From positions 1 through 25,881 of the IMG/VR virus record IMGVR_UViG_3300030677_000019: a DNA stretch of 25,881 nucleotides; one strand, written 5' to 3'. Shown piece after piece: positions 227 through 17,050 of this stretch (positions are counted from its first letter, which is position 1; each line of letters opens with the position of its first letter). Position numbers and translations under genes: made by a program. The notes beneath the pieces are model-generated. The model saw only the letters and a list, made by a program, of their open reading frames with translations. It ran no database searches and was not told the DNA's origin. This stretch comes from a virus (Duplodnaviria; Caudoviricetes).

Positions 227-2814
227 GAACCGGCACTCAGAAGGGATTCAAGACGGTCATGCTGGGCGGGCGTGAGTTTATTCTCATTGCGCCGCACCGA
301 GTCCATCACGTGCTTCATCATCGTCTCGCGCGCCACCGGGTTGGTCATCTCTTTGACGGCATCCATCCGCTGGTCGAGCGACAGCGTTTTGTAGGAACTG
401 AGTGGAACCTGTTCGCGCAGGCCGGGAACGCCGGTCTTGATCGCATCTACGAAGCCTTCAGGCTTGCGCTTGAACACCTTCTCTGGGTCCGATGCTTTGG
501 CGTAGTGCTGCAGATCTGGTGGCAAGACGGCATCGCGCACTTGTTCCCCGGCGAACTTGCTGGCGCTGCTGTAATCCTTGAGGCCTTCAGCAATCCGTCC
601 AGGCGCATCGAAGAAGGGCACTTCGCCTACCAGACCCTTCGCTGCGGCGAACATGCCAGCACCGGCGGTGCCTTCGCCCTTCTTCTTGCTCTCCACGATG
701 TGCCGTACCGTCGCGCCCATCTGCAGCATCTCTAGGGCCGGGTTGTGCACGAGGTATTTCGGGATGTTGACCCCGAACAGCTTCATGCCGCCGGGCTCCG
801 GAGCATCCTTCTGCTGCTTGTCGCCGGGCTGGTAGTAGCCGCCGACCTGGTTCGCGCCGTAGTAGCCCATGGCCAGCAGCGCCGCGCCGATGGTCTGCTT
901 CTTGAGATTGCGCATGATGTAGTCGGCCTGATCGGGTGTCAGATTCTTCAGCCCCTTGGAGGCGATCACCTGGCCGAGAGCCTTCGCACCACCGCCGGCA
1001 TAACTTCCCGCTTCCGCCACGAAGTTGGTCGGAATCTTCACGATCGGCAGGATGTACTCCAGCGTTTTCCCCGCCGCCTTGCCTGCGCCGCCGGAACGGT
1101 TCAGATGGCCGATCATCATGCGGTAGGCGGTGACGGCAGCGTTGTCGTTCATGAAGATGGCGCGCTGGCTGTCCTCGTAGGCCTTGGCGCCGAGCATGGC
1201 CTGCGTGGCCGGCGACTGCATCTGCTTATCGACCTCGGCCGGACTCTTCCCCTCGGCCGTCAGTTGCTTGCGTAAGGCCGCCCCGCGAAGCTCAACCGAG
1301 CGATAGAACTCGTTGCGCTTGGCTGGGGTCTTCAGCGCGCCATGCACTTGTCCCACCAGATCCATCAGCTTGTAGTGGTGATCCTTGTCCTTGCCGTAAA
1401 GCACGTCGTTCGTCCCAGCCCCGTGGACGGCCGTCTTGTACATTTCCTTGAGCGTGGCAGCCGAGAAGGTCTTGCGGGCCGCCTGCGCCTCCGCACGAAG
1501 GCTAAGACCCGCTCCCTCGCGTGGCGCCATGTCCGCAATGCTGCGAATGCCGGGAATCTGGCGTAGAACGCTGCCGACACCCTCTTCCAGCGGCGTAGAG
1601 AGAGTGCGCAAGGTGGCGGCACTGGTCAGCTTGCCGAGCGTATGGAACGACGACAGGATGATGGCGCGGCGGAAAGCCAGCAGGCGATCGGCCAAGCGGG
1701 CCGGCAACGACTGGTTGTTGCGCTCAAGCGTGCGGATGGCCTTGTCGGCTTTGGCGCGCAGTGCATCGCGCTGTGACTGCAGTTCCAGCGTTCCCTCGTC
1801 GTACTGCGGCTTGGCCTTCACCGGCTTGCTGAAGTCGCCCGTGTCGAGCTTGTGCTGCAGGTCGGCCATCTGCTTGGTCAGGTCGGCGCGGCGCGTGGCA
1901 TTGCGCACCTCTTCGGGAGACTTCTTCGGCGGTGGCTCGGGCTTCGCTTCCTTCGGTGTGATCGCGTCCAGATCGTCTTTTGCCTTGGCCAGGCGCTGAC
2001 GCAGCGCGGTGACTTCGGCCGTATCCACGGTGGCCTTCTTGGCTCGTGGACCGGTATCACCTGCGGCAATGCGTGCATTCACCTCGTCAATCTGCTTTTG
2101 CAGCCTCGAGCGTGCCGTGTTTTCTTGCCGATCACTCTTACCCATATCCGCATACCGCTGCGCTAGCTTGTCACGCTGAGCACGTATGGCCTGCGTCTCT
2201 TCGGTCCACTTGGGAGAAGGCTTATCCGGCTTGCTCATATCTCGCGCGTCAATGCGCTTGGTCAGAGCGTCGATCTGATTCTTCATGGCCGTCTGTGCAG
2301 CCTTGTTCTTCGCCTCGTTTGGATCCACGGGGCGCGTGGCTGGCGGCGAAGGTTCCATCAACTCAAGCTTTCCCTTGAGCGCATCGCGCTGTTGCTTCAG
2401 CGCCGTGATTTCCGGCGACTCCACAGAGAATTTATCGGGCTTCGACGTATCCCGCGCAGCAATACGTTGGTTGAGATCGTCGATTTCCTTCTTCAGCGCG
2501 TTCTGTCGAGCGGTGACCTTGGCCTGTTCCGGCGTCGGTGGGATGGCCTTTTCCGAGCTGACTTGCTTGGTGCGAAGTTCGGCTTTGATGGCCTCCAATC
2601 GCGTCTGCATCTCACTTTTTGTCTGCTTACGCACCTCTCCGATGCCAGCAATGATGTCGGCGATCTCGGATTTCCATAGCGGCGTGTGAGCATGGATTTC
2701 CTCATGGATTGAATCAATCAGATCGGCCGCATCTTTCACTCCGGCATCCACGCGGTTTTTAGCCATCGCGCGAATGATCTTTTTGACTTCCGGCGTCGCC
2801 TCGCAGCCACTCAT
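223..2814 (-). CDS. Large internal virion/ejection (polyvalent-type) protein, 863 aa
   Basis: Long ORF, likely start ATG 2814 (ATGA overlap). It has four charged helical repeats, then a helical membrane-like region with PIVKIPTNF, resembling the PFxxxPxN motif of large podophage internal proteins. It is the last gene of the ejection cassette. Confidence 0.7.
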   Translation of the reverse strand: MSGCEATPEVKKIIRAMAKNRVDAGVKDAADLIDSIHEEIHAHTPLWKSEIADIIAGIGEVRKQTKSEMQTRLEAIKAELRTKQVSSEKAIPPTPEQAKVTARQNALKKEIDDLNQRIAARDTSKPDKFSVESPEITALKQQRDALKGKLELMEPSPPATRPVDPNEAKNKAAQTAMKNQIDALTKRIDARDMSKPDKPSPKWTEETQAIRAQRDKLAQRYADMGKSDRQENTARSRLQKQIDEVNARIAAGDTGPRAKKATVDTAEVTALRQRLAKAKDDLDAITPKEAKPEPPPKKSPEEVRNATRRADLTKQMADLQHKLDTGDFSKPVKAKPQYDEGTLELQSQRDALRAKADKAIRTLERNNQSLPARLADRLLAFRRAIILSSFHTLGKLTSAATLRTLSTPLEEGVGSVLRQIPGIRSIADMAPREGAGLSLRAEAQAARKTFSAATLKEMYKTAVHGAGTNDVLYGKDKDHHYKLMDLVGQVHGALKTPAKRNEFYRSVELRGAALRKQLTAEGKSPAEVDKQMQSPATQAMLGAKAYEDSQRAIFMNDNAAVTAYRMMIGHLNRSGGAGKAAGKTLEYILPIVKIPTNFVAEAGSYAGGGAKALGQVIASKGLKNLTPDQADYIMRNLKKQTIGAALLAMGYYGANQVGGYYQPGDKQQKDAPEPGGMKLFGVNIPKYLVHNPALEMLQMGATVRHIVESKKKGEGTAGAGMFAAAKGLVGEVPFFDAPGRIAEGLKDYSSASKFAGEQVRDAVLPPDLQHYAKASDPEKVFKRKPEGFVDAIKTGVPGLREQVPLSSYKTLSLDQRMDAVKEMTNPVARETMMKHVMDSVRRNENKLTPAQHDRLESLLSAGS
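1720..2545 (-). repeat. Four degenerate ~60-70 aa coiled-coil repeats inside the 863-aa protein
   Basis: Cores: LKKEIDDLNQRIAARDTSKPDK, MKNQIDALTKRIDARDMSKPDK, LQKQIDEVNARIAAGDTGPRAK and LTKQMADLQHKLDTGDFSKPVK. Three are followed by QRD (QQRDAL, AQRDKL, SQRDAL). Confidence 0.8.
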
Positions 2815-5800
2815 ACAACGCACCCCGGCTCGAGTTGATCCTTCTGGGCGATCAGTTTGAGTTGCGCGCTCAGATCCTTGAAATGCTGGTCAGCGGTCTT
2901 TCGAGCGCCACCTGTCACGCCCGACTTGCGCTGAGCCTTCGTCTTCTGCAACTCGGCGATCTGCGCATCCTTTTCCTCGATCATCTTCGATAGGCGCTCA
3001 ATCTGCCCACGCTCGGCCGGCGTCAGGTCACGTCCAGCGGCGGCCTTGGCCTGGGTGAGCAGGTCGGCCATGGAATAGTCCTCACGGCTCATCATGCGGC
3101 GTGCAGCCAGACCGAAGCCCTGTTCGTAGCCCGAGGCCTTGCTGGCCTGATCGTTGGCTTCCAGTGCGTCCTCTACCGTGCGCAGCTTGGCGCGGGCGAC
3201 GGCCTCGGCATTCACATCCTTGTCATCGACCGCCTGAGCGATGTCAGCATTGGCGTCACGAAAGCTGTTCTTCAGGCGCATGCGGTCCTGGATCAGCGTG
3301 GCCGATTCCTCGGCACTCAGGGGACGAGGCTTCTCGTTGATCGTGCGTGCGAGGTCTTGGCCAGCGCCCGGATCGTCTTCCAGCTTCTTGGATGCCGTAT
3401 CCCACGCCTCGCCGAAGGTGCGCTTTCCCTCGTAGTCCACCTCATCCTTTCCCTTCAGCGCACGCTCTTCCGCAACGGTGGCGTGCTTGATGCCGGTGGT
3501 TTCCGGCGTGGGCTCGGAACGGGCTACGCGATCGGCGGTGGGCTCAGGTTCGGCTGATCGCTGGTCGGCAGGGGTTGAATCGACGGCGTCGGAATCGGCG
3601 CCTGATACCCGTGCTTGTGCGGACCCATTTCCATGATCGCCGGCAGTCCCCGCAACCGGCGGTTCAGCGCTGCGTGCACTATGTGATTGAAGCTCGGCGC
3701 TTTCGGTGTTCGCATGGTCGGTGTCCGGTTTCCCCAGAGCCCAGAGCTTACGCGCCTTTTCGGACGCTGTCCCGGTCATGGCAGCAATGATGTCTTTCGG
3801 GTCGGCGCCAGCATCCACGGCCTTGTCCACCAGGTCGGCAATGGACATCACGTCGGCCTGATGTTCCGGCGCCACGTCCAGACCCAGCGAGTCCATGGCG
3901 GTCGATCGATCTTCCGGTGCCATGGCGGCTGTCGCTTGGCGGCTTTGCTGAAGTTCCACGTGAAACGGATCGTTGTCGCCGGTCAGGCTGATCTGGTGCG
4001 GGTGGAAGGCTACCCAGGCGTTCTGGTCGGGCAAATGGATGCCGTCGTAGCCCTGCGCTTCCAGATGGGCGCGCACCTGTCGCGCTTGGTCGGGTGTCTC
4101 GATCGCCTGTGCCTCGTCCAACGGCATCTCGTAGGGCTTCTTGATGTCGAGTTGCGCCTGCATCACGCGCTCATCGGCCGGTCGTCCCTCGCTGGCATTG
4201 CGCGCATACCCCTCGGCGCTGGCACGGTCTGGCGTGAAGAAGTGGCCCAGCGGCGAGGTCGCGTGCGCGGTGGACTCGCCCGAACGGTCCTCGAACTGGT
4301 CGAAGTCGTTGGCGGTGCCATGGTAGACGGTCAGCGGCTTGCCCTTGTCGTCGGTGACCTTGCTGGCGTTCGGGTCTAGCAGATGCTCCACACCGTCGTC
4401 CACATAGGGCTTGGTGTCGAGGTTCGGCGAGATGTCGGATGCGCCAGCACCCTCGGTCTCGGCCTTGTCCAGATAGGGCTGAAGCGCCTCATTGAAGGCG
4501 TCGTGAGTAACCCCGTACTTTTCCTTGAGGTAGGTCTCCTCGTAGGTGTTCGCGTTGACGTTGTGCGCGTCGGCGTAGTCCTTGCCCTGATCGAGCTGGG
4601 TTTTCTCCGGCGCCTCGTGGGCATTGGCGATCACGTCATGCGCGTCCACCTTGACCACTGTGCCGTCCGGCTTGGGCACGTCGATGAACTGCGGGATGCG
4701 CTTGTCGATGAAATTGACGCTGTTGTCCTTGGAGCCGCCACCGCCAAGAGGGACGCTGGTGGTGGCATCGATCGGGGTAGCGGGGTGCAGCGGAACCTCA
4801 GCGTCAGGATCGGCCTTGACCATGGCATCAGCCGCCGCTGTATGCGCCGCGACATCAGCCGGTGCAAGACCGGCCTCGGCGGCATTCTTGGCGACCAAGC
4901 TGGCTGCGGTCGATCCCCCACCCACATTCGCGCTGGCATCCTTGGCCGCTTGCTGCGCTTGCGCTTGTGGCGGGGTGACGGGCGCCGGCTCCGCTTCGGG
5001 TAATGGCGTCGGCTTGGCCTCGCCACCACCAGGAAGCAGCCCGAGTGCCGCTGCGGTAGCCGCACTGGTCACGTAATCGGCTGGCGTGGAGCGCTGGCCC
5101 GTCGTCAGGTCACTGAGCGCGCGTCCACCCACACCGGATGCCGCGCCGACCAGTGGACGGGCAAGGTAGGGGAGGCCATGGCCCATAGGGAGAAGGTTCG
5201 CGTCGGTGTCTGCCAGCGCCATGCTTGCGAGTTGGGCGTTGCTGACCGGCTGACCGTTGGCATCCATCGCTGCGGCCTGTGCGCCAGAACCCGTCGTCCC
5301 CAAGACGGCCGCCGTGCGCAGCGCAGGGCTGGTCATGGCGTTGGCGATCATGCCGCCGGCGGTAGGTGCCGCTTCCACCACCGGAGCCACTTCACCCGCG
5401 CCGCCCGCCGCCATCGCGGTGGCAATCGACCCGCCCAAGTTGCCGACCATCTGGATCACATCGGACCCGATCCCTGCGCTGGCTGGCGCTGCCAGTTGTG
5501 GGTTGGTGGCCACGGCCGGTGCAATCGCGTTTTGGGTGAAATCCTGGCTCAACGTGCCGTGACCGCCCAGTGCATTGATCGTCGCGTCAGCCGGGGCAAG
5601 GAACACCCGTCGGACGCCTTCGTTGAGTCCGGTGGCGGCGGTATTGACCGACTTCGCCAAGCCGCGCGTGAGAGGGTTGTCGATCAGGTATCCGGCACCC
5701 GTGCCATAGGGCACGGTACCGGTAGCGCCCAGCGCCGCCTTGATCTTGTCACCGAGTGATGGCGGTGCATCGGGCGTGAACTGCGACCAATCAACCGCCG

Positions 5801-5861
5801 CCGCTGGCGCAGCATCTGGCACCGGCGTGTCAGGCGTGAACTGGCTCCAATCCGTTGCCAT
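2811..5861 (-). CDS. Large internal virion/ejection polyvalent protein with ART-PolyVal-like ADP-ribosyltransferase domain, 1016 aa
   Basis: N-terminal DWSQFTPD occurs twice and is followed by Gly/Ala-rich amphipathic segments. An HEAPE...YADAH module precedes SKVTDDKGKPLTVYHGT...GHFFT...AEGYA...LDIKKPY...GYDGI...WVAFHPHQI, the ART-PolyVal signature. The C-terminus is coiled coil. Confidence 0.8.
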   Translation of the reverse strand: MATDWSQFTPDTPVPDAAPAAAVDWSQFTPDAPPSLGDKIKAALGATGTVPYGTGAGYLIDNPLTRGLAKSVNTAATGLNEGVRRVFLAPADATINALGGHGTLSQDFTQNAIAPAVATNPQLAAPASAGIGSDVIQMVGNLGGSIATAMAAGGAGEVAPVVEAAPTAGGMIANAMTSPALRTAAVLGTTGSGAQAAAMDANGQPVSNAQLASMALADTDANLLPMGHGLPYLARPLVGAASGVGGRALSDLTTGQRSTPADYVTSAATAAALGLLPGGGEAKPTPLPEAEPAPVTPPQAQAQQAAKDASANVGGGSTAASLVAKNAAEAGLAPADVAAHTAAADAMVKADPDAEVPLHPATPIDATTSVPLGGGGSKDNSVNFIDKRIPQFIDVPKPDGTVVKVDAHDVIANAHEAPEKTQLDQGKDYADAHNVNANTYEETYLKEKYGVTHDAFNEALQPYLDKAETEGAGASDISPNLDTKPYVDDGVEHLLDPNASKVTDDKGKPLTVYHGTANDFDQFEDRSGESTAHATSPLGHFFTPDRASAEGYARNASEGRPADERVMQAQLDIKKPYEMPLDEAQAIETPDQARQVRAHLEAQGYDGIHLPDQNAWVAFHPHQISLTGDNDPFHVELQQSRQATAAMAPEDRSTAMDSLGLDVAPEHQADVMSIADLVDKAVDAGADPKDIIAAMTGTASEKARKLWALGKPDTDHANTESAELQSHSARSAEPPVAGTAGDHGNGSAQARVSGADSDAVDSTPADQRSAEPEPTADRVARSEPTPETTGIKHATVAEERALKGKDEVDYEGKRTFGEAWDTASKKLEDDPGAGQDLARTINEKPRPLSAEESATLIQDRMRLKNSFRDANADIAQAVDDKDVNAEAVARAKLRTVEDALEANDQASKASGYEQGFGLAARRMMSREDYSMADLLTQAKAAAGRDLTPAERGQIERLSKMIEEKDAQIAELQKTKAQRKSGVTGGARKTADQHFKDLSAQLKLIAQKDQLEPGCVV

Positions 5862-7078
5862 CAGCTCACCGGTACCGGAATGCCGTTCTTGACGATGTAC
5901 TTCTGATTGCCTTTCTTGAGCGGCGTGCCTTCGGGATACGGGCTACCCGGCGCTTTGATCGGCGGTGGCAGGCCGGCAGGGAGGACAGCAGGACCAGCCG
6001 CCGGTGGCGTGTAATCACCTTGCGGTGACACACCCGGCGGTAATGCGGTCGGCGCTCCACCCATGGCAGCGGCAATGCCGGTCGGTGCAGCGGGTGCCGG
6101 CGCGCCACCCATGGCACCAGCGATCGGATTCGATGCTGGCACTTGAATGCCGGTGATGGGGTTGGCGTTCTGCGGCGGCGGCGCACCCGGCGTGCCAATG
6201 GCCGAGCGGTGCAGCGCGGAGAACTTCTGCAGCGCATAGTCGGTGTTGGACATCTTCGGGTCGATCGCCTTCTGCTGGGCCTGCCATGCCATGAAGGCCT
6301 GCGCCTTCAACGGATCAGGCTTGCCGGTGACCGGATCGGTCGCTCCAATCATGGCCAAGTCGTTCGCGGTCGGGGCGCGCGTGTTGCCGGCACCGGAAAG
6401 ATGGGTGACCGGCTGTCCATTGAGGCTCAGTGGAGCTACTTCGCCGGTCAGCTTGTTCACGCGGATCTGATTGCCGCTGCCATCGCTGGTGACCTCCCAA
6501 TTCGCGGCTTTGTCGGTGCCGATGCCGGCCATAGCACGCTTCGCTTCAGCCGCATTCTTTCCGGCTCCCGCGTTCGCCTCGTTGGCGTCGGCCATGGCTT
6601 TGGCGATGTCCGCGCTGCCTACCGCCGTCGGTGCGATGTTCTGGCTATCGGGCGTCATGCTGGGGTTCAAGGCGACACCGCCGCTGACCTCGGTGAGCTT
6701 CTGTGGCTCGCCGTGCATCACCGCCAGGATGTTGTTGATCTTGTTTTGGTCGGGATCGGCGCCTGTTGCGAGCGCCATCGCGTTGTTGCCCCATCCGATG
6801 TTTTGTTCCGTCTTGGCGCCGCCGGCCTGCTCCTGGTAGTTGGTGCCGCTTTGCGCCATCGCCGCAGCGACAATGCCCTGCGCAGCGGGGTCACCAGACT
6901 GGGCCCGCTGCATGACATCCGGGGTCATTGCCGCCAGCGCGAGCTGCTTGTTTCGCGTGGCGCGCGCCTGCTCCAACAGGTTGCCCTGCTGAATACCCTG
7001 CGTCACGCCGGTATTGAACGACTGGTTGGGGTTATTGCCCAACGCCGCGCCGAGTGTCTGCCATCCGTTCATCGCCAT
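5861..7078 (-). CDS. Internal virion/DNA ejection protein, 405 aa
   Basis: Ala/Gly/Gln/Pro-rich ORF starting GWQTLGAALG and ending in a short YPEGT...YIVKNG beta motif typical of podophage ejection proteins. It sits in the ejection cassette with a TGATG overlap. Confidence 0.65.
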   Translation of the reverse strand: MAMNGWQTLGAALGNNPNQSFNTGVTQGIQQGNLLEQARATRNKQLALAAMTPDVMQRAQSGDPAAQGIVAAAMAQSGTNYQEQAGGAKTEQNIGWGNNAMALATGADPDQNKINNILAVMHGEPQKLTEVSGGVALNPSMTPDSQNIAPTAVGSADIAKAMADANEANAGAGKNAAEAKRAMAGIGTDKAANWEVTSDGSGNQIRVNKLTGEVAPLSLNGQPVTHLSGAGNTRAPTANDLAMIGATDPVTGKPDPLKAQAFMAWQAQQKAIDPKMSNTDYALQKFSALHRSAIGTPGAPPPQNANPITGIQVPASNPIAGAMGGAPAPAAPTGIAAAMGGAPTALPPGVSPQGDYTPPAAGPAVLPAGLPPPIKAPGSPYPEGTPLKKGNQKYIVKNGIPVPVS

Positions 7079-7090
7079 TGCGGTGACCCC

Positions 7091-7768
7091 TTAAGTGAAA
7101 TTGGGCATATTCATGGTGTAGCCGCCACCGACCGACGTAGGCGTGCTGCCGACACTCGATCCGATGCCCTGACCATCCCCGGCGGTGATGGCATTGGCGG
7201 TGCCGCCGTTCGCGGCCGACGCTTTCGCGTAGGCGCCCAGTACATCAGACAGGCCGCCGATCCACGGGTTGGGCTGCTCCGATTGCGCCTTGAGCTGCGC
7301 GAGGTAGGCGTCGGCCTTGGAGTTCTGCTGGATCTGGCCAATCTGCGAGCCATAGGCCAGCGTGTCGCCGGTCTCGGCTTGGCGCTGCATCTGCGGGGCG
7401 TCGATCTGCGACATGAGGTTCGCGTTGCCCTGGCCGTAGGTGCTGATGCCCGTGGCAGCGGCTTGTGCGGCCTGCTTGTACGCTGCTGACGTGTTGCCCA
7501 CTTGGTTCAGTGGCGCATTCGCATTCGATTCGTTCGCAGCCAGCGCCGCATTGAACTTGCCCAGCGCCGCGGCCTGATAAGGCTGTGCGGTCGAATTCTG
7601 GAACTGGCTGATGACTTTCTGCGTGGCCGTGTTCGACTGCTTGTTCAGCTGTGCCTGCTGAATCTGCCCGGCAGCCAGATCGTCGTTTTGTGCATTGGCG
7701 GTCTGGTGCTGGTTGTACATCGCCAGACCAGCGGACACCAGCGCGGCGCCTGCGACCCAAAAGCTCAT
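7091..7768 (-). CDS. Small ejection (pilot) protein, 225 aa
   Basis: Hydrophobic N-terminus MSFWVAGAALVSAGLAMY followed by a Gln/Ala/Asn-rich helix, as in P22 gp7 or T7 gp14-like proteins. ATGA-coupled. Confidence 0.65.
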   Translation of the reverse strand: MSFWVAGAALVSAGLAMYNQHQTANAQNDDLAAGQIQQAQLNKQSNTATQKVISQFQNSTAQPYQAAALGKFNAALAANESNANAPLNQVGNTSAAYKQAAQAAATGISTYGQGNANLMSQIDAPQMQRQAETGDTLAYGSQIGQIQQNSKADAYLAQLKAQSEQPNPWIGGLSDVLGAYAKASAANGGTANAITAGDGQGIGSSVGSTPTSVGGGYTMNMPNFT

Positions 7769-11176: not shown

Positions 11177-11949
11177 GTGTTGCCCCCATCGAGCGGGAAC
11201 AACCCGTCGTAGTTGGTGCCAGCTGGCGAACCCGATCCGCCGGCAAAGGTGGTGACAATCGGCGTGGACTGCGTATTGACGCCCTCGTTGACCGTCGCGC
11301 CGGCTGCCAGTGGCCACACGGGCTCGGTGCTACCGGTGGCCGGGTTATCACCCTCGGCGAGCGTGCAGACGTACTGGAAGCCGTTGTAGGTCGATGGCTG
11401 GATCACTGTGCCGACACTTACCTGCGTGTTGGCGGTCCATGCCGGCGGGTTGTTCTGGGTGGTCGCCGCGTAGACGTAGCCGTTCGGCGTGGTCGGGGTG
11501 ACCAGCTGGTTGAGCTGGTATTGGGTGTTGGGCGCCCACGTGCCCGTGGACTGCAGCCAGTAGTGGTAGACATTGCCGTCACTGAAGCCGGCCACGACGT
11601 ACAGAAATCCGAGGAACGGTGCGGCGAAATAGATCTCGTCGAGCGTGCCGGTGAAGGCCGGATTCGGATGGATCAAGATGTTGCACACGTAGCCGGCCGG
11701 CATGGTGATGTTGGTCAGCGCAAAGACGTTCAGCAGTCCCTTGAAGGCAACGAGCCCTTTCGTGCCGGTGGTCAGCGTCTCATCCAGCGTGGTGCCGTCG
11801 CGGCTGGTCGGTGCTCCGGAGATATCGACGTAGCCGTTCAACAAGTCATAGACGCCATCGGGCGAGGCGCCGCCCTTGTCGCGCAACCGGGTGATGCCGG
11901 TCTTGAGACTGGTCAGCACCGGGACCGAGCGCAGGCCACGTGCCGCCAT
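11173..11949 (-). CDS. Tail nozzle N-terminal part/virion protein with C-terminal CBM5/12-like repeats, 258 aa
   Basis: The start LTSLKTGITRLRDKGGASPDGVYDLLNGYVDISGAPTSRDG resembles nozzle N-termini. Repeats WAPNTQY...NGYVY and WTANTQV...NGFQY, plus TGSTEPVWP, follow. The gene comes after the adaptor (TAATG overlap). Confidence 0.65.
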   Translation of the reverse strand: MAARGLRSVPVLTSLKTGITRLRDKGGASPDGVYDLLNGYVDISGAPTSRDGTTLDETLTTGTKGLVAFKGLLNVFALTNITMPAGYVCNILIHPNPAFTGTLDEIYFAAPFLGFLYVVAGFSDGNVYHYWLQSTGTWAPNTQYQLNQLVTPTTPNGYVYAATTQNNPPAWTANTQVSVGTVIQPSTYNGFQYVCTLAEGDNPATGSTEPVWPLAAGATVNEGVNTQSTPIVTTFAGGSGSPAGTNYDGLFPLDGGNT

Positions 11950-13661
11950 TACCAGACCCTCCGCGGACGCACGGCATTCAGCGGCATGCCGTTCACCGGT
12001 ATGTAACGGCGCGTGTTGTGGGTGCCGGCGATCAGGTCACCCAGGAAGGTGGTCAGCTGCCCCTGCACGTTCTGCGCGTCCGGCTGGCCGTAGTGCATCT
12101 TGGCATTGCCCAGCGCGAGCATGAACACGGCGCGATAGTCGATGGTGGTCTGGTCGTTGTCGTTGACGAACGATTGCAGGCCGAAATAGCCCTTGATGCG
12201 CAGTGACCATGTGTTATCCGGCGGTCCCGGCCATATTTCGATGCACTGGCGGCATTCGTAGCTGTCAGGTATCGAGTTGATGATCGAGGTGTAGCGCAGC
12301 GGGTCGATACCGCACGACAGCGGACGCCAGTTGTTGTCGTTCTGCGAGATGCCTACCCAGGTGATCGCGCGCGGGTCGAGCGTCTTGGAGCACGCGCCGG
12401 TGGTGTTGACCAACGGCGGCGCATTGCCGGAGGGTGTGATGGACCCGTTGTACTGAAAGCTGGTCGTGCCGGACCCTACCTGCGCCATCTGTGCCATCTG
12501 GTAGGTCAGCGGACCATTTCCGTAAATGATGTAGCCCGTCGCGCCGGTTACAGCCGCCCAAGTCACCGTGTTCGTGCTGTTCGGCCCGGTGGTTATGACC
12601 TGCACTTCTACGGCCTGATTGGTCTCGCCATTGGCATTCAAGGCAGTCACCACGTAACCATACGTGCCCTGGATCAGTGCTCCTGCGCTCGCATCGGTTG
12701 CCACGCTGACGCCTGTAGGCGCCTGAATCGATCCGTTGACGGCATCGTCGTTCTCGTTGAAGTCGTAGAAGCGTTGTCCCTCGAGCATCGACCACGTGAA
12801 CCACCGCTCACCACGGAACACCTTGTAGCGACGGAACAACAACTCCTGCGCTTCGATCAAGAACGAATTGAGTAGCGGAACCATGCCCGGCGGCGGGACC
12901 ATCATGGCGGCGAAGCCCAGGCGCGTCATGAGTTCGATGCGCAGCTGCTTCAGCGTCTTGGTCGGGTAGTCCGTCTCGCTGCATTCGCAGTTGTAGTTGG
13001 TCGGAACCACCGCGACTGACACCGTGGCTGGCGCCGATGTATTGCCATCATACGTACCCGTGTAGGTGAAGCTGTCCGGACCGTGATAGAAGACGTTCGG
13101 CGTATAGACGATGGCGCCATCAAGGACGAAAGCGCTGCCATTTGTCGCTTGACTCGCGATAGCAAGCGTCGCATCGACGGGTGAACCGTCCTGAGTGACG
13201 CTGGTTGTGACCGAGTTGTTGTTCGAGTTGCTGGCAACGGAGATCGTCTCGTCGGACGCCACGGGCGTCGGCGGTGCCGGTGGTGTGACCGTGACCGTGT
13301 TAGTGCCCAGCGCCTCGCCAGCTGAGCCGGGAAGAAGCTGAACCTGAAGTTGGGTCAGGCCTGTGGGCACTGCATACGCTTCCGTGCCACCGTTATTTCC
13401 AGTGGGCTGTAGCAAGGTGCGATCGCCAGGGGTTGGCGACAGGTAGATGATCGACGATCCGTCGGCCGGCGTGCCTGCGGTAGTGGCGTTCGCATAAGTG
13501 AAGCCGAGTGTGTCTGAGCCAGTGTAGGAGCCTATGAACGTCAGGAAGATTTCGACATAGTCGCCCTGTGTCGCGCTGGCAACATACGACGTGCCGTTCC
13601 AGCACGCGGGCGGTGATTGCGTGCCATCACTCCAGTTGTTCGGGTTGGATAGCAGGTTCAT
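11949..13661 (-). CDS. Head-tail adaptor (tail tubular protein A-like) with added Ig-like domains, 570 aa
   Basis: Adaptor-like core TLKQLRIELMTRLGF...LNSFLIEAQELL...GQRFYDF...IEIWPGP...LALGNAKMHYGQPDA. It also has a Big_9/cadherin-like domain (YTPNVFYHGPDSFTYT) and an FN3-like insert (YGYVVTALNANGET...VTWAAVTGATGYIIY). Confidence 0.7.
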   Translation of the reverse strand: MNLLSNPNNWSDGTQSPPACWNGTSYVASATQGDYVEIFLTFIGSYTGSDTLGFTYANATTAGTPADGSSIIYLSPTPGDRTLLQPTGNNGGTEAYAVPTGLTQLQVQLLPGSAGEALGTNTVTVTPPAPPTPVASDETISVASNSNNNSVTTSVTQDGSPVDATLAIASQATNGSAFVLDGAIVYTPNVFYHGPDSFTYTGTYDGNTSAPATVSVAVVPTNYNCECSETDYPTKTLKQLRIELMTRLGFAAMMVPPPGMVPLLNSFLIEAQELLFRRYKVFRGERWFTWSMLEGQRFYDFNENDDAVNGSIQAPTGVSVATDASAGALIQGTYGYVVTALNANGETNQAVEVQVITTGPNSTNTVTWAAVTGATGYIIYGNGPLTYQMAQMAQVGSGTTSFQYNGSITPSGNAPPLVNTTGACSKTLDPRAITWVGISQNDNNWRPLSCGIDPLRYTSIINSIPDSYECRQCIEIWPGPPDNTWSLRIKGYFGLQSFVNDNDQTTIDYRAVFMLALGNAKMHYGQPDAQNVQGQLTTFLGDLIAGTHNTRRYIPVNGMPLNAVRPRRVW

Positions 13662-14586: not shown

Positions 14587-15639
14587 TCAGGCGATCGAGA
14601 GAACCGCCATGCAGTTCCGCTTGCTGATCGTCATACCGTAATCCGAGGTAAGACCCCAGAAGTACGTGTATCGATCATAGATGCGCGGCGGCTTGCGGTT
14701 GATCATCCAGCGTCCCTTGAACGGACGCAAATGGATGAACTTGGAGTTGAGGAAGTAGCAGCGCTTGGCCCACGGGTAGGTGATCGCACCAAGGATCACA
14801 TCGAGCGCATCGAAGCTCGGATCCCAGACCAGCTCCACGCCCTTGAAGTACAGGCCCATGATGCCGCCGGACATGTCCGAGGACTTGTTGTCGCCCCACG
14901 ACTGCATGCGCACGATGCCTGCCGCGCAATCCAGACGGTACGCATCCAGGAACTTCGAGCCGCAGAAGATCTTGTCGGGTGCGTGGCCACCGAACTGCGT
15001 GCAGGCGCGCCAGGTGATTTCCATCTGCTGGGTCAGCGTGCCCAGCGTCGCGGTGCTGATGGCCATGTTGGCGTTGTTCTGCCAGAACGTGTACACCGAC
15101 GGATCGAGGCCGCCGACAACGCCCGTGGTCGGGGTGGTCGAGACCAGGTAGTCAAGGCCCGGAACCGCCTGCGCGGACTGCGAGCCGTTCTGGTGGATTT
15201 CCAGATCCCATGCATCCTGAAAGCCCTGCTTGAGGACCGTGTAGTTCTCCTTGATCTTGGAGACCAGCACGACCTTCTCGGAGGCTTCCAGCTTGGCGTC
15301 CTGGTCATCGGTGAGGATGATGCCGTTGTCGGCCAGCTCGGTTTCGTTGAGGGTGAAGCCGTCGTGCGCCTCGTAGTGCATGTACGGCGCCATGCGAACG
15401 GTGTCGCGACGGTTGTAGGTAACCTGCTGGTCACCCGAGTAGTTCTGGTAGTTCGAGTTGTTCGAGATACGAACCTTCTCGTTGAAGATGCCGTTGCCGT
15501 AGATCGACGGGATCTTCTTCTCGATGAACCATTTCGCCAACGGTTTGGCGTGCTCGATCTGATCGATCGGGTCGTTTTCGGCGTAGCTCATCAGCTGATA
15601 GTTCGCGCCGTTGAGCAGTTGCTGTGGAGTGATGGGCAT
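14587..15639 (-). CDS. Major capsid protein (HK97 fold presumed), 350 aa
   Basis: Likely start ATG 15639 with GAGG RBS. Motifs DQIEHAKPL, HDGFTLNETELADNGI, GLDYLVSTTPTTGVVGGLD...WQN, PDKIFCGSKFLDAYR, FKGVELVWDP and KRCYFLN match podophage capsid proteins. It follows the scaffold gene. Confidence 0.85.
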   Translation of the reverse strand: MPITPQQLLNGANYQLMSYAENDPIDQIEHAKPLAKWFIEKKIPSIYGNGIFNEKVRISNNSNYQNYSGDQQVTYNRRDTVRMAPYMHYEAHDGFTLNETELADNGIILTDDQDAKLEASEKVVLVSKIKENYTVLKQGFQDAWDLEIHQNGSQSAQAVPGLDYLVSTTPTTGVVGGLDPSVYTFWQNNANMAISTATLGTLTQQMEITWRACTQFGGHAPDKIFCGSKFLDAYRLDCAAGIVRMQSWGDNKSSDMSGGIMGLYFKGVELVWDPSFDALDVILGAITYPWAKRCYFLNSKFIHLRPFKGRWMINRKPPRIYDRYTYFWGLTSDYGMTISKRNCMAVLSIA

Positions 15640-15780
15640 TGCAGTGGCCTCGTGAACAGGAAAGGGAAAACCCCGTAGGGTTACTTCTTTCCACGTTCGA
15701 GGGTGCGAAGCTCGATGCGGCACTACCAGGCGCGACACTGGCTTACGGCTACGTGGGTTGCGGCGCTTACCGCGTGTTGG
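15640..15780 (-). ncRNA. Candidate structured cis-regulatory 5' leader of the capsid mRNA
   Basis: Nested stems: GCGG/CCGC; CCACGT/ACGTGG enclosing GCCAG/CTGGT and TCGAG/CTCGA; then GGAAAG..AACCC-TACG-GGGTT..CTTTCC. Confidence 0.55.
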
Positions 15781-15785
15781 ACGGC

Positions 15786-15814
15786 ATCCTCGCCGTGCGT
15801 GAATGGGTTGTCAA
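15786..15814 (-). promoter_or_regulatory. Sigma70-type promoter for the capsid operon
   Basis: Perfect TTGACA (15809-15814), 17-bp spacer and GAGGAT (15786-15791), directly downstream of a terminator. Confidence 0.65.
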
Positions 15815-15823
15815 GCGAGCGGC

Positions 15824-15859
15824 AAAGAAAAGGGCCGCGCGCTTCACAGCGGACGGCCC
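15824..15859 (-). terminator. Rho-independent terminator after the scaffold gene
   Basis: Minus strand GGGCCG-TC-CGCT-GTGA-AGCG-CG-CGGCCC-TTTTCTTT. Confidence 0.75.
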
Positions 15860-15913
15860 CGGGTATCGACCGCGCTGGCTCGGACCAGTCACGGGATGGG
15901 TGGAGGTGAAAGA

Positions 15914-17050
15914 TTACTCGGAGGCGGCACCGAATGCACCGATCTCGAAGGCCTCGGTATCGCTCTTGGGCTTTGGCCGCATGCCGGAGCTGGCGTTGCC
16001 CGGACGGATCGGCATGTGGCCTACGGGTGGCAGCTGCCGCGTATTACCCACTGCAGATGGTGCAGCGACGGGCGCCGTGGGCTGCGGCAACTGACCGTAA
16101 GCGCGCGCCACGGCCTCGGGCCACTTGCTCGGGGGCAACGTTTCCACGATCAGGTCCAATGTCGGCTTGAGCATGTCCATCTTGACCGCGTAGAACGGGT
16201 CAGCCGGAACCCCTAACGCCGGGTTGCCTTCGCGTAGATTCTTCCCCAGCTGGCCCAGATGCGCGTTTGCCGTCTGCACCGCCACAGCATGCTGCTGCTG
16301 CTCGGTGTTGGCCTGCACTGCACGACCTGTCATCGCCGCTTGTGCCCGCTCGGCAGCGTGCTGCTTGGCCAGTGCCTCGGTGATGTCGCCGTTCTCCACG
16401 GCCGCCTTCAAGTCGGGGTGACCGGCCAGTGGATCAACCAATCCCGGCACGTCGCGGCCGATCTCCTGGCCGAGCTGCTGCAGCGTGGACAGCATCGTGT
16501 CGAACGCCACGCCCTTGGCCTTGATGTCGGTCCCGTTCAGCGCCTTGCCGACCTCGATCATCATGCCCAGCTGCTGCGGTGGCACGCCCGATTGCTGCAG
16601 GAAGCCATTCCACTCATCCAGGTTCTGCTTGGCCTCGCGCAGCGGGGTGATCTCCGCATCCTTGGTCTTGAGGCTGGATGTCAGCTCGCGGAAGCGCTCG
16701 GCCGCCTTGGCCTTCAGACCAAGCGACTTGATCTCGGTCTCAACCGCCGGGTCAGGCACGGCCGCCGGGGTGACTTCAGCGACCGGCGGAACGACCGCTG
16801 GCACAACCTCTGCAGCAGCGGCAGGTGTAGCCACCTTGGCTGCTGCAGCAGCCGCCACATCCGCTCCATCCCGAGCAGGATGGCCTGCTGACTCATCACT
16901 TTGCGTTGCATGGTCTACCCCCTGGTCAAAGGCCGAGGATGCCGCTTCGTCCACATTCGGCGTGGCGGTGGTATCGGCAGGTGCATCGGTTCCCGTATCA
17001 GCCGGCAGGTCGGTAGGGGTGGTGTCGGTGGTTTCGCCTTCAATGATCAT
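15914..17050 (-). CDS. Capsid scaffolding protein, 378 aa
   Basis: Acidic, Pro/Ala-rich disordered N-terminus, AAERFRELT coiled coil, DPLAGHPDLKAAVENGDIT segment, and a short basic plus helical C-terminus. It lies between portal and capsid. Confidence 0.75.
   Translation of the reverse strand: MIIEGETTDTTPTDLPADTGTDAPADTTATPNVDEAASSAFDQGVDHATQSDESAGHPARDGADVAAAAAAKVATPAAAAEVVPAVVPPVAEVTPAAVPDPAVETEIKSLGLKAKAAERFRELTSSLKTKDAEITPLREAKQNLDEWNGFLQQSGVPPQQLGMMIEVGKALNGTDIKAKGVAFDTMLSTLQQLGQEIGRDVPGLVDPLAGHPDLKAAVENGDITEALAKQHAAERAQAAMTGRAVQANTEQQQHAVAVQTANAHLGQLGKNLREGNPALGVPADPFYAVKMDMLKPTLDLIVETLPPSKWPEAVARAYGQLPQPTAPVAAPSAVGNTRQLPPVGHMPIRPGNASSGMRPKPKSDTEAFEIGAFGAASE

Follow-up and report, generated by a model that had tools for sequence, protein, structure and literature searches.

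Little has been mapped of how tailed phages adjust the amount of capsid protein to that of scaffold, or of how temperate phages silence a capsid gene that is fed by a promoter. Both questions are raised by the region upstream of the major capsid gene in a virus record of 25,881 nt (25.9 kb, ~63% complete), which was analyzed as a whole and is called the window here. An initial annotation, made from the sequence alone, had described a highly structured RNA leader in front of this gene. Here we ask whether this leader is conserved as an RNA and what it might do for capsid synthesis.

The capsid gene is preceded by a leader and a predicted promoter

The main genes of the window, encoding DnaB, RusA, terminase, portal-like, scaffold-like, capsid and tail proteins, are all located on the minus strand. 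The phage is a podophage with integrated prophages among its relatives, and one leader-bearing relative is an integrated prophage with an integrase and a repressor. The gene downstream of the leader (14587-15639, minus strand, 350 aa) encodes the major capsid protein, as had been proposed: the protein scores 255 bits against NCBIfam NF033394 (capsid_maj_Podo, cut-off 80), also matches PHROG 9953, and its predicted model yields matches to capsids of the HK97-type fold. Between the portal-like gene and the capsid gene lies a putative scaffolding protein gene (15914-17050, minus strand, 378 aa), whose product has an acidic N-terminus (assigned with low confidence), a helical core and a C-terminal helix. 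Profile and fold searches (fold search E ≤ 0.001) gave neither a family nor a fold match for this protein, and its name is therefore taken from synteny. Elsewhere in the window, a large gene of the tail/internal-protein region (2811-5861, minus strand) contains an ART-PolyVal ADP-ribosyltransferase domain (E 1e-15), and a virion-module protein (11949-13661, minus strand) contains a Bacterial Ig-like (Big_9) domain; the latter is much shorter in most relatives.

The scaffold-like gene stops at 15914 and the capsid gene starts at 15639, which leaves a gap of 274 nt; the leader described before is the 3' half of this gap. All sequence strings named in the initial annotation were present at 15640-15780, but on the minus strand. 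From 5' to 3' the gap contains a terminator-like hairpin, a TTGACA-17-GAGGAT site, a hairpin (P0), a three-way junction, a further hairpin (P4) and the Shine-Dalgarno (SD) sequence. The intrinsic terminator-like hairpin with its U-tract (15824-15860, minus strand, stem 15850-15834) follows the scaffold gene. At this location, 5' of the capsid promoter, the terminator often has a GUGAGAC- or GUGAAG-like loop region (window 15824-15860; L121, L008, L028, L139). The scaffold-capsid gap is often 400-900 nt longer, with the insert located 5' of the capsid promoter (L002, L020, L049, L060, L079 and others).

For comparison, capsid homologues were gathered from viral, genome and metagenome collections. 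The 199 loci obtained included 190 with a capsid start and yielded 138 distinct leaders; 131 leaders had at least 150 nt of upstream sequence, and 84 were non-redundant at 80%. In the window, a predicted sigma-70-like promoter (15786-15814, minus strand) consists of the -35 box TTGACA (15814-15809), a spacer of 17 nt and a weak -10 box GAGGAT (15791-15786). Promoters of this type were detected before 60 of the 84 leaders compared with 4 of 84 coding controls; a stricter promoter scan of the window did not list the TTGACA-17-GAGGAT site. Spacers of the promoters before the 60 leaders are mostly 16 or 18-19 nt long, 17 nt being rare (3/60), and these lengths may reflect a preference of the host sigma factor or a need for activation.

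In the relative L088, transcription is predicted to start near 5869, and the closing stem of the junction (P1) is found at 5888. Among the matches listed, RNA contigs from three coded studies, which possibly belong to one campaign, start at 5881, 5916 and 5924 and end at 7534-7759; the runs were selected by their match to the leader stretch, and contigs cannot show transcription starts. The contig from run X16 (run kind not on record) reads through, and runs X1, X4, X8 and X10 were without the contig pattern of X2, X3 and X14. Contig depth, which cannot rank genes, was left out of the evidence. These contigs hint, though weakly, that the capsid gene has a transcript of its own and that the leader is part of it.

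Leaders of homologous capsid genes share a covarying three-way junction

Folding of the single window sequence is unremarkable: the leader alone has a z-score of -1.57, with 15 of 200 shuffles folding equally well, and its minimum-energy fold is a hairpin that occludes the SD (15702-15687 with 15664-15648), not the junction. A plus-strand fold was rejected (z = -0.76; the genes are encoded on the opposite strand). Support beyond chance is provided by the relatives, in which the description as highly structured, not evident from the sequence taken singly, is upheld as a conserved covarying fold.

Alignment A2 comprised 43 leaders of canonical layout, which were hand-picked from 71 non-redundant rows and thus stand for the canonical class, not for every variant. 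Without constraints, RNAalifold recovered from these leaders the junction of stems P1, P2 and P3, closed by CCACGU/ACGUGG as described before, with two-sided changes in 12 of 13 pairs; P1-P3 thus covary in leaders of homologous capsid genes. The window junction spans 15691-15756 (minus strand), with the P1 strands CCACGU (15756-15751) and ACGUGG (15696-15691) and the two arms at 15742-15725 and 15715-15697. When the pseudoknots described below were added on an unfitted MAFFT alignment, 17 of 20 pairs showed two-sided changes, which was matched by 0 of 500 shuffles, a control that overstates significance because kinship is ignored. Slid controls for the junction and pseudoknot PK2 were only 30-45% paired. 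Alignment A3 was fitted to a model built on P1-P3 only (74 matches from 84 sources); in its 70 distinct rows, 96.9% of the cells of the junction and PK2 are paired. G-U pairs outnumber A-C pairs by 82 to 6 (26 to 6 minus a single conserved G-U), an excess that fits an RNA transcribed from the minus strand and supports RNA over a DNA hairpin.

Both arms contain the UCGC sequence that had been read as twin free loops; in the comparative model, however, these are the 3' strands of two pseudoknots. Each UCGC pairs back with the strand just 5', resulting in two homologous mini-pseudoknots. Unit 1 (15725-15749, minus strand) consists of stem P2, which is 99.7% paired, and the short pseudoknot PK1, in which the strand before P2 pairs with loop 2 (G15749-C15732, C15748-G15733 and G15746-C15734, with C15747 bulged). 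Unit 2 (15697-15723, minus strand) consists of stem P3 and pseudoknot PK2, formed by the strand between P2 and P3 with loop 3 (GUGC 15723-15720 with GCAC 15706-15703, and G15718-C15707, with C15719 bulged). In A3, PK2 is paired in 97.9% of cells and shows two-sided changes in three of five pairs. One PK2 pair switches between G-C (38 rows) and A-U (31 rows); on the capsid tree the same pair was concordant in 47 of 47 leaders, with eight changes and four of four independent pairs. PK1 has 2-5 bp with an optional one-base bulge, and 188 pairs were counted versus 175 ± 3.5 with shuffled partners (1/2000); in the Stenotrophomonas clade it is weak, with only two pairs. Sequence comparison supports PK1 as well, less strongly than PK2.

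The two units can be described by one consensus, with a pairing strand of 2-5 nt, zero or one bulged base, a G and a short A/U-rich linker in the 5' part, and a stem of 4-5 bp, NN-UC, the partner strand and the 3' arm of the stem in the 3' part. A G, a UCG and an AG are near-invariant in both. The topology is unusual, since the pairing strand of the loop leads almost directly into the 3' arm of the stem. With a descriptor derived from canonical leaders, one unit or more was detected in 69 of the 84 leaders versus 24 of 251 coding windows, and at least two units in 37 of 84 versus 4 of 251. Units extend to capsids that are only 34-36% identical to the window capsid.

Other parts of the leader named in the initial annotation exist in the window but are not shared. 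The GCGG hairpin, P0 (15760-15773, minus strand), is variable in sequence and likely located close to the transcript's 5' end; it is present at 15773-15760, its exact sequence occurring in 1 of 84 leaders. The C(UACG)G hairpin before GAGG is likewise present, with the cap kept in 2 of 84 leaders, and GUAAGC is repeated in 1 of 84. All three (P0 sequence, UACG cap, GUAAGC repeat) were therefore discarded as conserved features. Hairpin P4 (15661-15690, minus strand) varies in length and fits both of the folds considered below. The SD GAGG (15648-15651, minus strand), assigned from sequence and alignment, is followed by the ATG at 15639.

Rfam 15 had no match in the window, and at E ≤ 10 none of the matches for five loci and the window stretch overlapped the leader. 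Judged by comparison of relatives, the leader is almost certainly a conserved structured RNA with twin pseudoknots in a three-way junction. The proposal of a cis-regulatory RNA absent from the catalogue has thus stood up to the conservation, covariation and Rfam analyses.

The last stem of the junction can pair with the Shine-Dalgarno sequence

An alternative fold that hides the SD had been missed in the initial annotation. The 3' arm of P3 is an anti-SD strand: in the window, the anti-SD arm 15702-15687 can pair with 15664-15648, and the resulting predicted OFF helix (15648-15702, minus strand) covers the SD. This helix and the junction, the predicted ON fold, are mutually exclusive by prediction. 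For 64 of the 65 non-redundant leaders of canonical layout, the predicted ground state has the SD paired with the 3' arm of P3 (p > 0.5). The free ensemble of the 65 canonical leaders lies a median of 13 kcal/mol below the junction, which is an upper estimate because the energies omit both pseudoknots. The energy order of the ON and OFF folds is a model prediction.

Opening of the ribosome-binding site (RBS) was calculated to cost 14.2 kcal/mol in the free leader and 5.5 kcal/mol when the junction is held, compared with 8.5 kcal/mol at other late-gene starts (n = 62). Holding the junction lowered the computed cost in 64 of 64 leaders (one was skipped). When the strands of P3 were swapped in silico, the opening cost was 7.5 kcal/mol, and 54 of 64 leaders showed a drop of >3 kcal/mol; after the same swap in P2 the cost was 14.0 kcal/mol, and 4 of 64 showed such a drop. 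Since the RBS in the OFF fold would be more closed than those of other late genes, yet the gene encodes the most abundant virion protein, the ON state at work is most likely the conserved junction.

Over all 84 non-redundant leaders, the duplex of the anti-SD strand with its own SD has a mean energy of -14.8 kcal/mol versus -12.0 kcal/mol with foreign SDs, and in 30 of 84 the own SD is in the best tenth. Covariation between both sides was determined with anchors that make no use of complementarity. Position +1 after CUC covaries with the SD side (38/54 vs. 27.0, p = 0.0002), as does position +2 (34/54 vs. 23.9, p = 0.0016); for position +3, covariation with the SD side was not significant. On fixed MAFFT columns the anti-SD showed no excess over shuffles (128/500 for pairing, 250/500 for the covariation score). 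In a tree-aware anti-SD test with only six independent pairs, 4.9 changed the same way and 0 the opposite way (p ~0.06). Because of the fixed-column result and the small number of independent pairs, the switch is well supported but unproven by covariation alone. We consider it quite probable that the leader is a functional SD/anti-SD switch with two states; it is a real, conserved phage leader RNA absent from Rfam, and its kind would be that of a translational switch. As the junction is located 5' of the SD it folds first, and on nascent RNA the mean formation probability is 0.75 for P1, 0.65 for P2 and 0.32 for P3.

The leader is linked to one capsid family

A pattern scan for unit 1, which took in 42 of 64 parts of the viral collection, found at least 120 viral loci, 97 of them before capsid genes of the NF033394 family. 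The other loci comprise one full motif at a contig end and one that is cut off, the rest being without a second unit by eye. With model R2, each of the 13 leader-bearing genomes scanned gave one strong copy, which was that of the capsid gene. A descriptor scan for second copies in the window gave 3 matches versus 2-11 in shuffles. Scans of 151 genomes of the host family (R1) and of 151 genomes of the class (R2) gave only capsid-linked matches and weak ones in long open frames; since 23-32 candidates were scored per genome, the motif is to be called not found there, rather than absent. In the genomes searched, the motif was not found before metabolic genes, and a blastn search with the leader among 50,697 records of cultured phages gave no match. 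Only two plasmid records matched; both represent one S. maltophilia circle of 42 kb, on which the same capsid gene is found. This circular "plasmid" (L376, NZ_CP090425.1), with capsid gene and leader, is probably an excised phage.

The leader is also present in prophages of the cultured strains Stenotrophomonas acidaminiphila JCM 13310 and SCAU 4, S. humi DSM 18929 and Luteibacter sp. SG786, which makes its trigger directly testable. Cultured distant relatives lack the motif. Among them, RHph_N65, Mae-Yong1326-1 and ppBjS10J-1 are leaderless, and their capsid gene lies 16-22 nt behind the scaffold gene; thus, the leader is present where direct scaffold-capsid coupling has been lost. In the capsid spacers of Mx8, Mx9 and BUCT555 (141-163 nt), models and descriptor detected no units. 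The spacers of the Myxococcus phages Mx8 and Mx9 (L337:2054-2200, L326:2711-2874; 146-163 nt) look structured, with a G/C stem, a loop of sequence AUUCGCG and a hairpin that covers the SD, and match neither the models nor the descriptor.

A phage assembly protein may hold the leader in the open state

The explanation we favor, at somewhat less than even confidence, is a translational ON switch held open by a phage assembly protein, with the scaffold as first candidate. The capsid gene would be transcribed from its own predicted promoter, and the leader would serve as a two-state translational switch. In the ON state the twin-pseudoknot junction would keep the anti-SD strand occupied, and in the OFF state the long hairpin, predicted to be more stable, would hide the RBS. 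An assembly protein, most likely the scaffold, would bind both repeated units and hold the ON fold, so that capsid protein would be made only during head assembly and the gene would stay silent in the prophage. We only infer the operation of the switch in vivo, its triggering by a protein and the identity of that protein. A phage protein seems overall a reasonable candidate for the trigger, at not quite even chances, and the scaffold specifically a tentative one; a feed-forward assembly switch, in which scaffold binding to the twin-pseudoknot leader unlocks the RBS of the capsid mRNA, is likewise possible but rather doubtful.

A protein trigger is favored because the repeated near-invariant units and their extra copies suggest multivalent binding, because a temperate phage whose promoter is of the host type must keep the gene off in lysogens, and because the leader occurs where direct scaffold-capsid coupling was lost. 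In addition, the gene families common to all 13 leader-bearing genomes in blastp comparisons belong to the virion module only. No non-virion regulator common to the 13 genomes was found in this comparison, which used a crude ORF caller, may miss small or divergent genes and included the window at ~63% completeness. The scaffold has no RNA-binding fold recognisable in the fold search at E ≤ 0.001, and two leaderless relatives likewise have its conserved basic helix. Atlas searches with the two genes that follow the capsid gene named no family.

A close rival, nearly as likely as this explanation and in itself possible rather than probable, has the same two folds working without a phage ligand. 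The junction formed during transcription would be a kinetic trap or a standby site for S1/30S; fresh transcripts would be translated strongly and older ones would refold to the OFF state, following the logic of the MS2 maturation leader, tisB and timP. A ligand is possibly unneeded because P1 and P2 form unaided on nascent RNA, and that no non-virion regulator common to the carriers was found in the blastp comparison points the same way. In the accessible descriptions, a tisB pseudoknot is an S1/30S standby element (PMC7708055), a timP pseudoknot frees the SD (PMC13000454) and MS2 has a transient permissive fold (PMC4615214). However, a ligand-free leader leaves the near-invariant bases repeated in both units unexplained, and the host-type promoter would lead to capsid synthesis in a lysogen unless it needs an activator. 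Host copies of the motif were, moreover, not found in the two samples of 151 genomes.

It appears unlikely that the junction is a repressor operator, for instance for free capsid protein, or mainly a 5' structure that stabilizes the mRNA, with the anti-SD only tuning output. Such a role would agree with the anti-SD covariation on fixed columns, which is not above shuffles, and with reports that T4 gp32 binds a leader pseudoknot and regulates its own translation (PMC10690425) and that the P22 scaffold is autogenously regulated (PMC5529062). Yet for 64 of 64 leaders the prediction is that a stabilized junction opens the RBS instead of closing it, and the junction ends ~40 nt 5' of the SD, which would be too far for a simple steric block.

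We regard a small-molecule or ion riboswitch that links capsid synthesis to host physiology as improbable. Translational ON riboswitches use SD/anti-SD/anti-anti-SD logic. The leader shares with them a conserved structured domain that is mutually exclusive with an SD-sequestering helix, and its aptamer-like build (multistem junction, pseudoknots, bulged base) is combined with an SD/anti-SD platform. Unlike them, it has no Rfam family, with no match to an Rfam riboswitch, and no metabolic gene context: 97 of the at least 120 pattern loci lie before this capsid family instead of genes for ligand metabolism or transport, and the number of units and their connectors vary.

A cis-acting antiterminator, such as put of HK022, or a packaging/assembly RNA, as suggested in the initial annotation, is very improbable: two stem-loops do lie directly behind the promoter, but the element is always found between promoter and capsid SD, its last arm is complementary to, and predicted to pair with, that very SD, the L088 RNA contigs among the matches listed end within two genes of the capsid (7534-7759, a weak point), and no Rfam match was found.

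The leader combines features of known switches

With the leaders of tisB and timP, the capsid leader has in common a 5' UTR pseudoknot linked to the release of, or access to, a sequestered SD, and alternative ON and OFF folds (PMC13000454, PMC7708055); in the capsid leader, the location of the pseudoknots upstream of a sequestered SD is predicted. As far as these sources are accessible, theirs are single pseudoknots in toxin mRNAs under antisense RNA control. The capsid leader differs in having two homologous knots in a junction and a last stem that is itself the anti-SD, and in preceding a capsid gene; an antisense partner was not seen in the second-copy search of the genome.

The MS2 maturation leader also belongs to a phage virion protein and shows conserved inhibitory SD pairing with an earlier-forming permissive fold (PMC4615214). 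According to the accessible text, the permissive fold of MS2, an RNA phage, consists of a single small hairpin, and one copy of the encoded protein is enough (PMC4615214), whereas here the elaborate conserved fold would be the permissive one and the gene encodes the major capsid protein. The operator of T4 gene 32 is a phage leader pseudoknot bound by a phage protein (PMC10690425), and P22 scaffold synthesis is an example of post-transcriptional control of head-assembly stoichiometry (PMC5529062). Both are cases of autorepression; binding to the capsid leader is predicted to activate a different gene, and instead of the RBS block of the gene 32 type, an opening of the RBS is predicted when the fold is held.

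Fremin et al. (2023; PMC10690425) list a candidate RNA, DNAVirus_5613, of 86 nt with 259 sequences, located ≤25 bp upstream of capsid_maj_Podo genes 52 times. The accessible entry describes it as palindromic with one covarying pair and gives no pseudoknot, switch or function. The capsid family is the same as in the window, and by its listed description, on which the comparison is based, this uncharacterized candidate may be the leader or a part of it. No description of the pseudoknots or motifs of the leader was found in full-text searches that covered few subscription papers, and in the accessible main text of Weinberg 2017 (PMC5737381) the word "capsid" does not occur.

If a translational ON switch held by an assembly protein is indeed at work, the coat gene of a DNA phage would be translationally activated by its own assembly partner, and the leader might be one of a wider, unrecognized class of tandem mini-pseudoknot capsid leaders. 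The leader is compact (~110 nt) and its structural model is well supported; it would suit structure determination and might be used as a component for controlling translation inducibly.

Natural variants of the leader show which bases matter. Extra pseudoknot units or a second junction are located 5' of the canonical one in L102 (1039-1103), L005, L076 and L186. More distant capsid clades have variant leaders (L187, L151, L158, L165, L181, L185, L198; L147, L150, L152, L154, L162, L170; L205, L234, L267, L277). Some variant layouts have an extra hairpin between the units and others a single unit, and longer nested ones are seen in L115 and several proviral records. In the groups L187-L198 and L147-L170, an arm complementary to the own SD region is retained.
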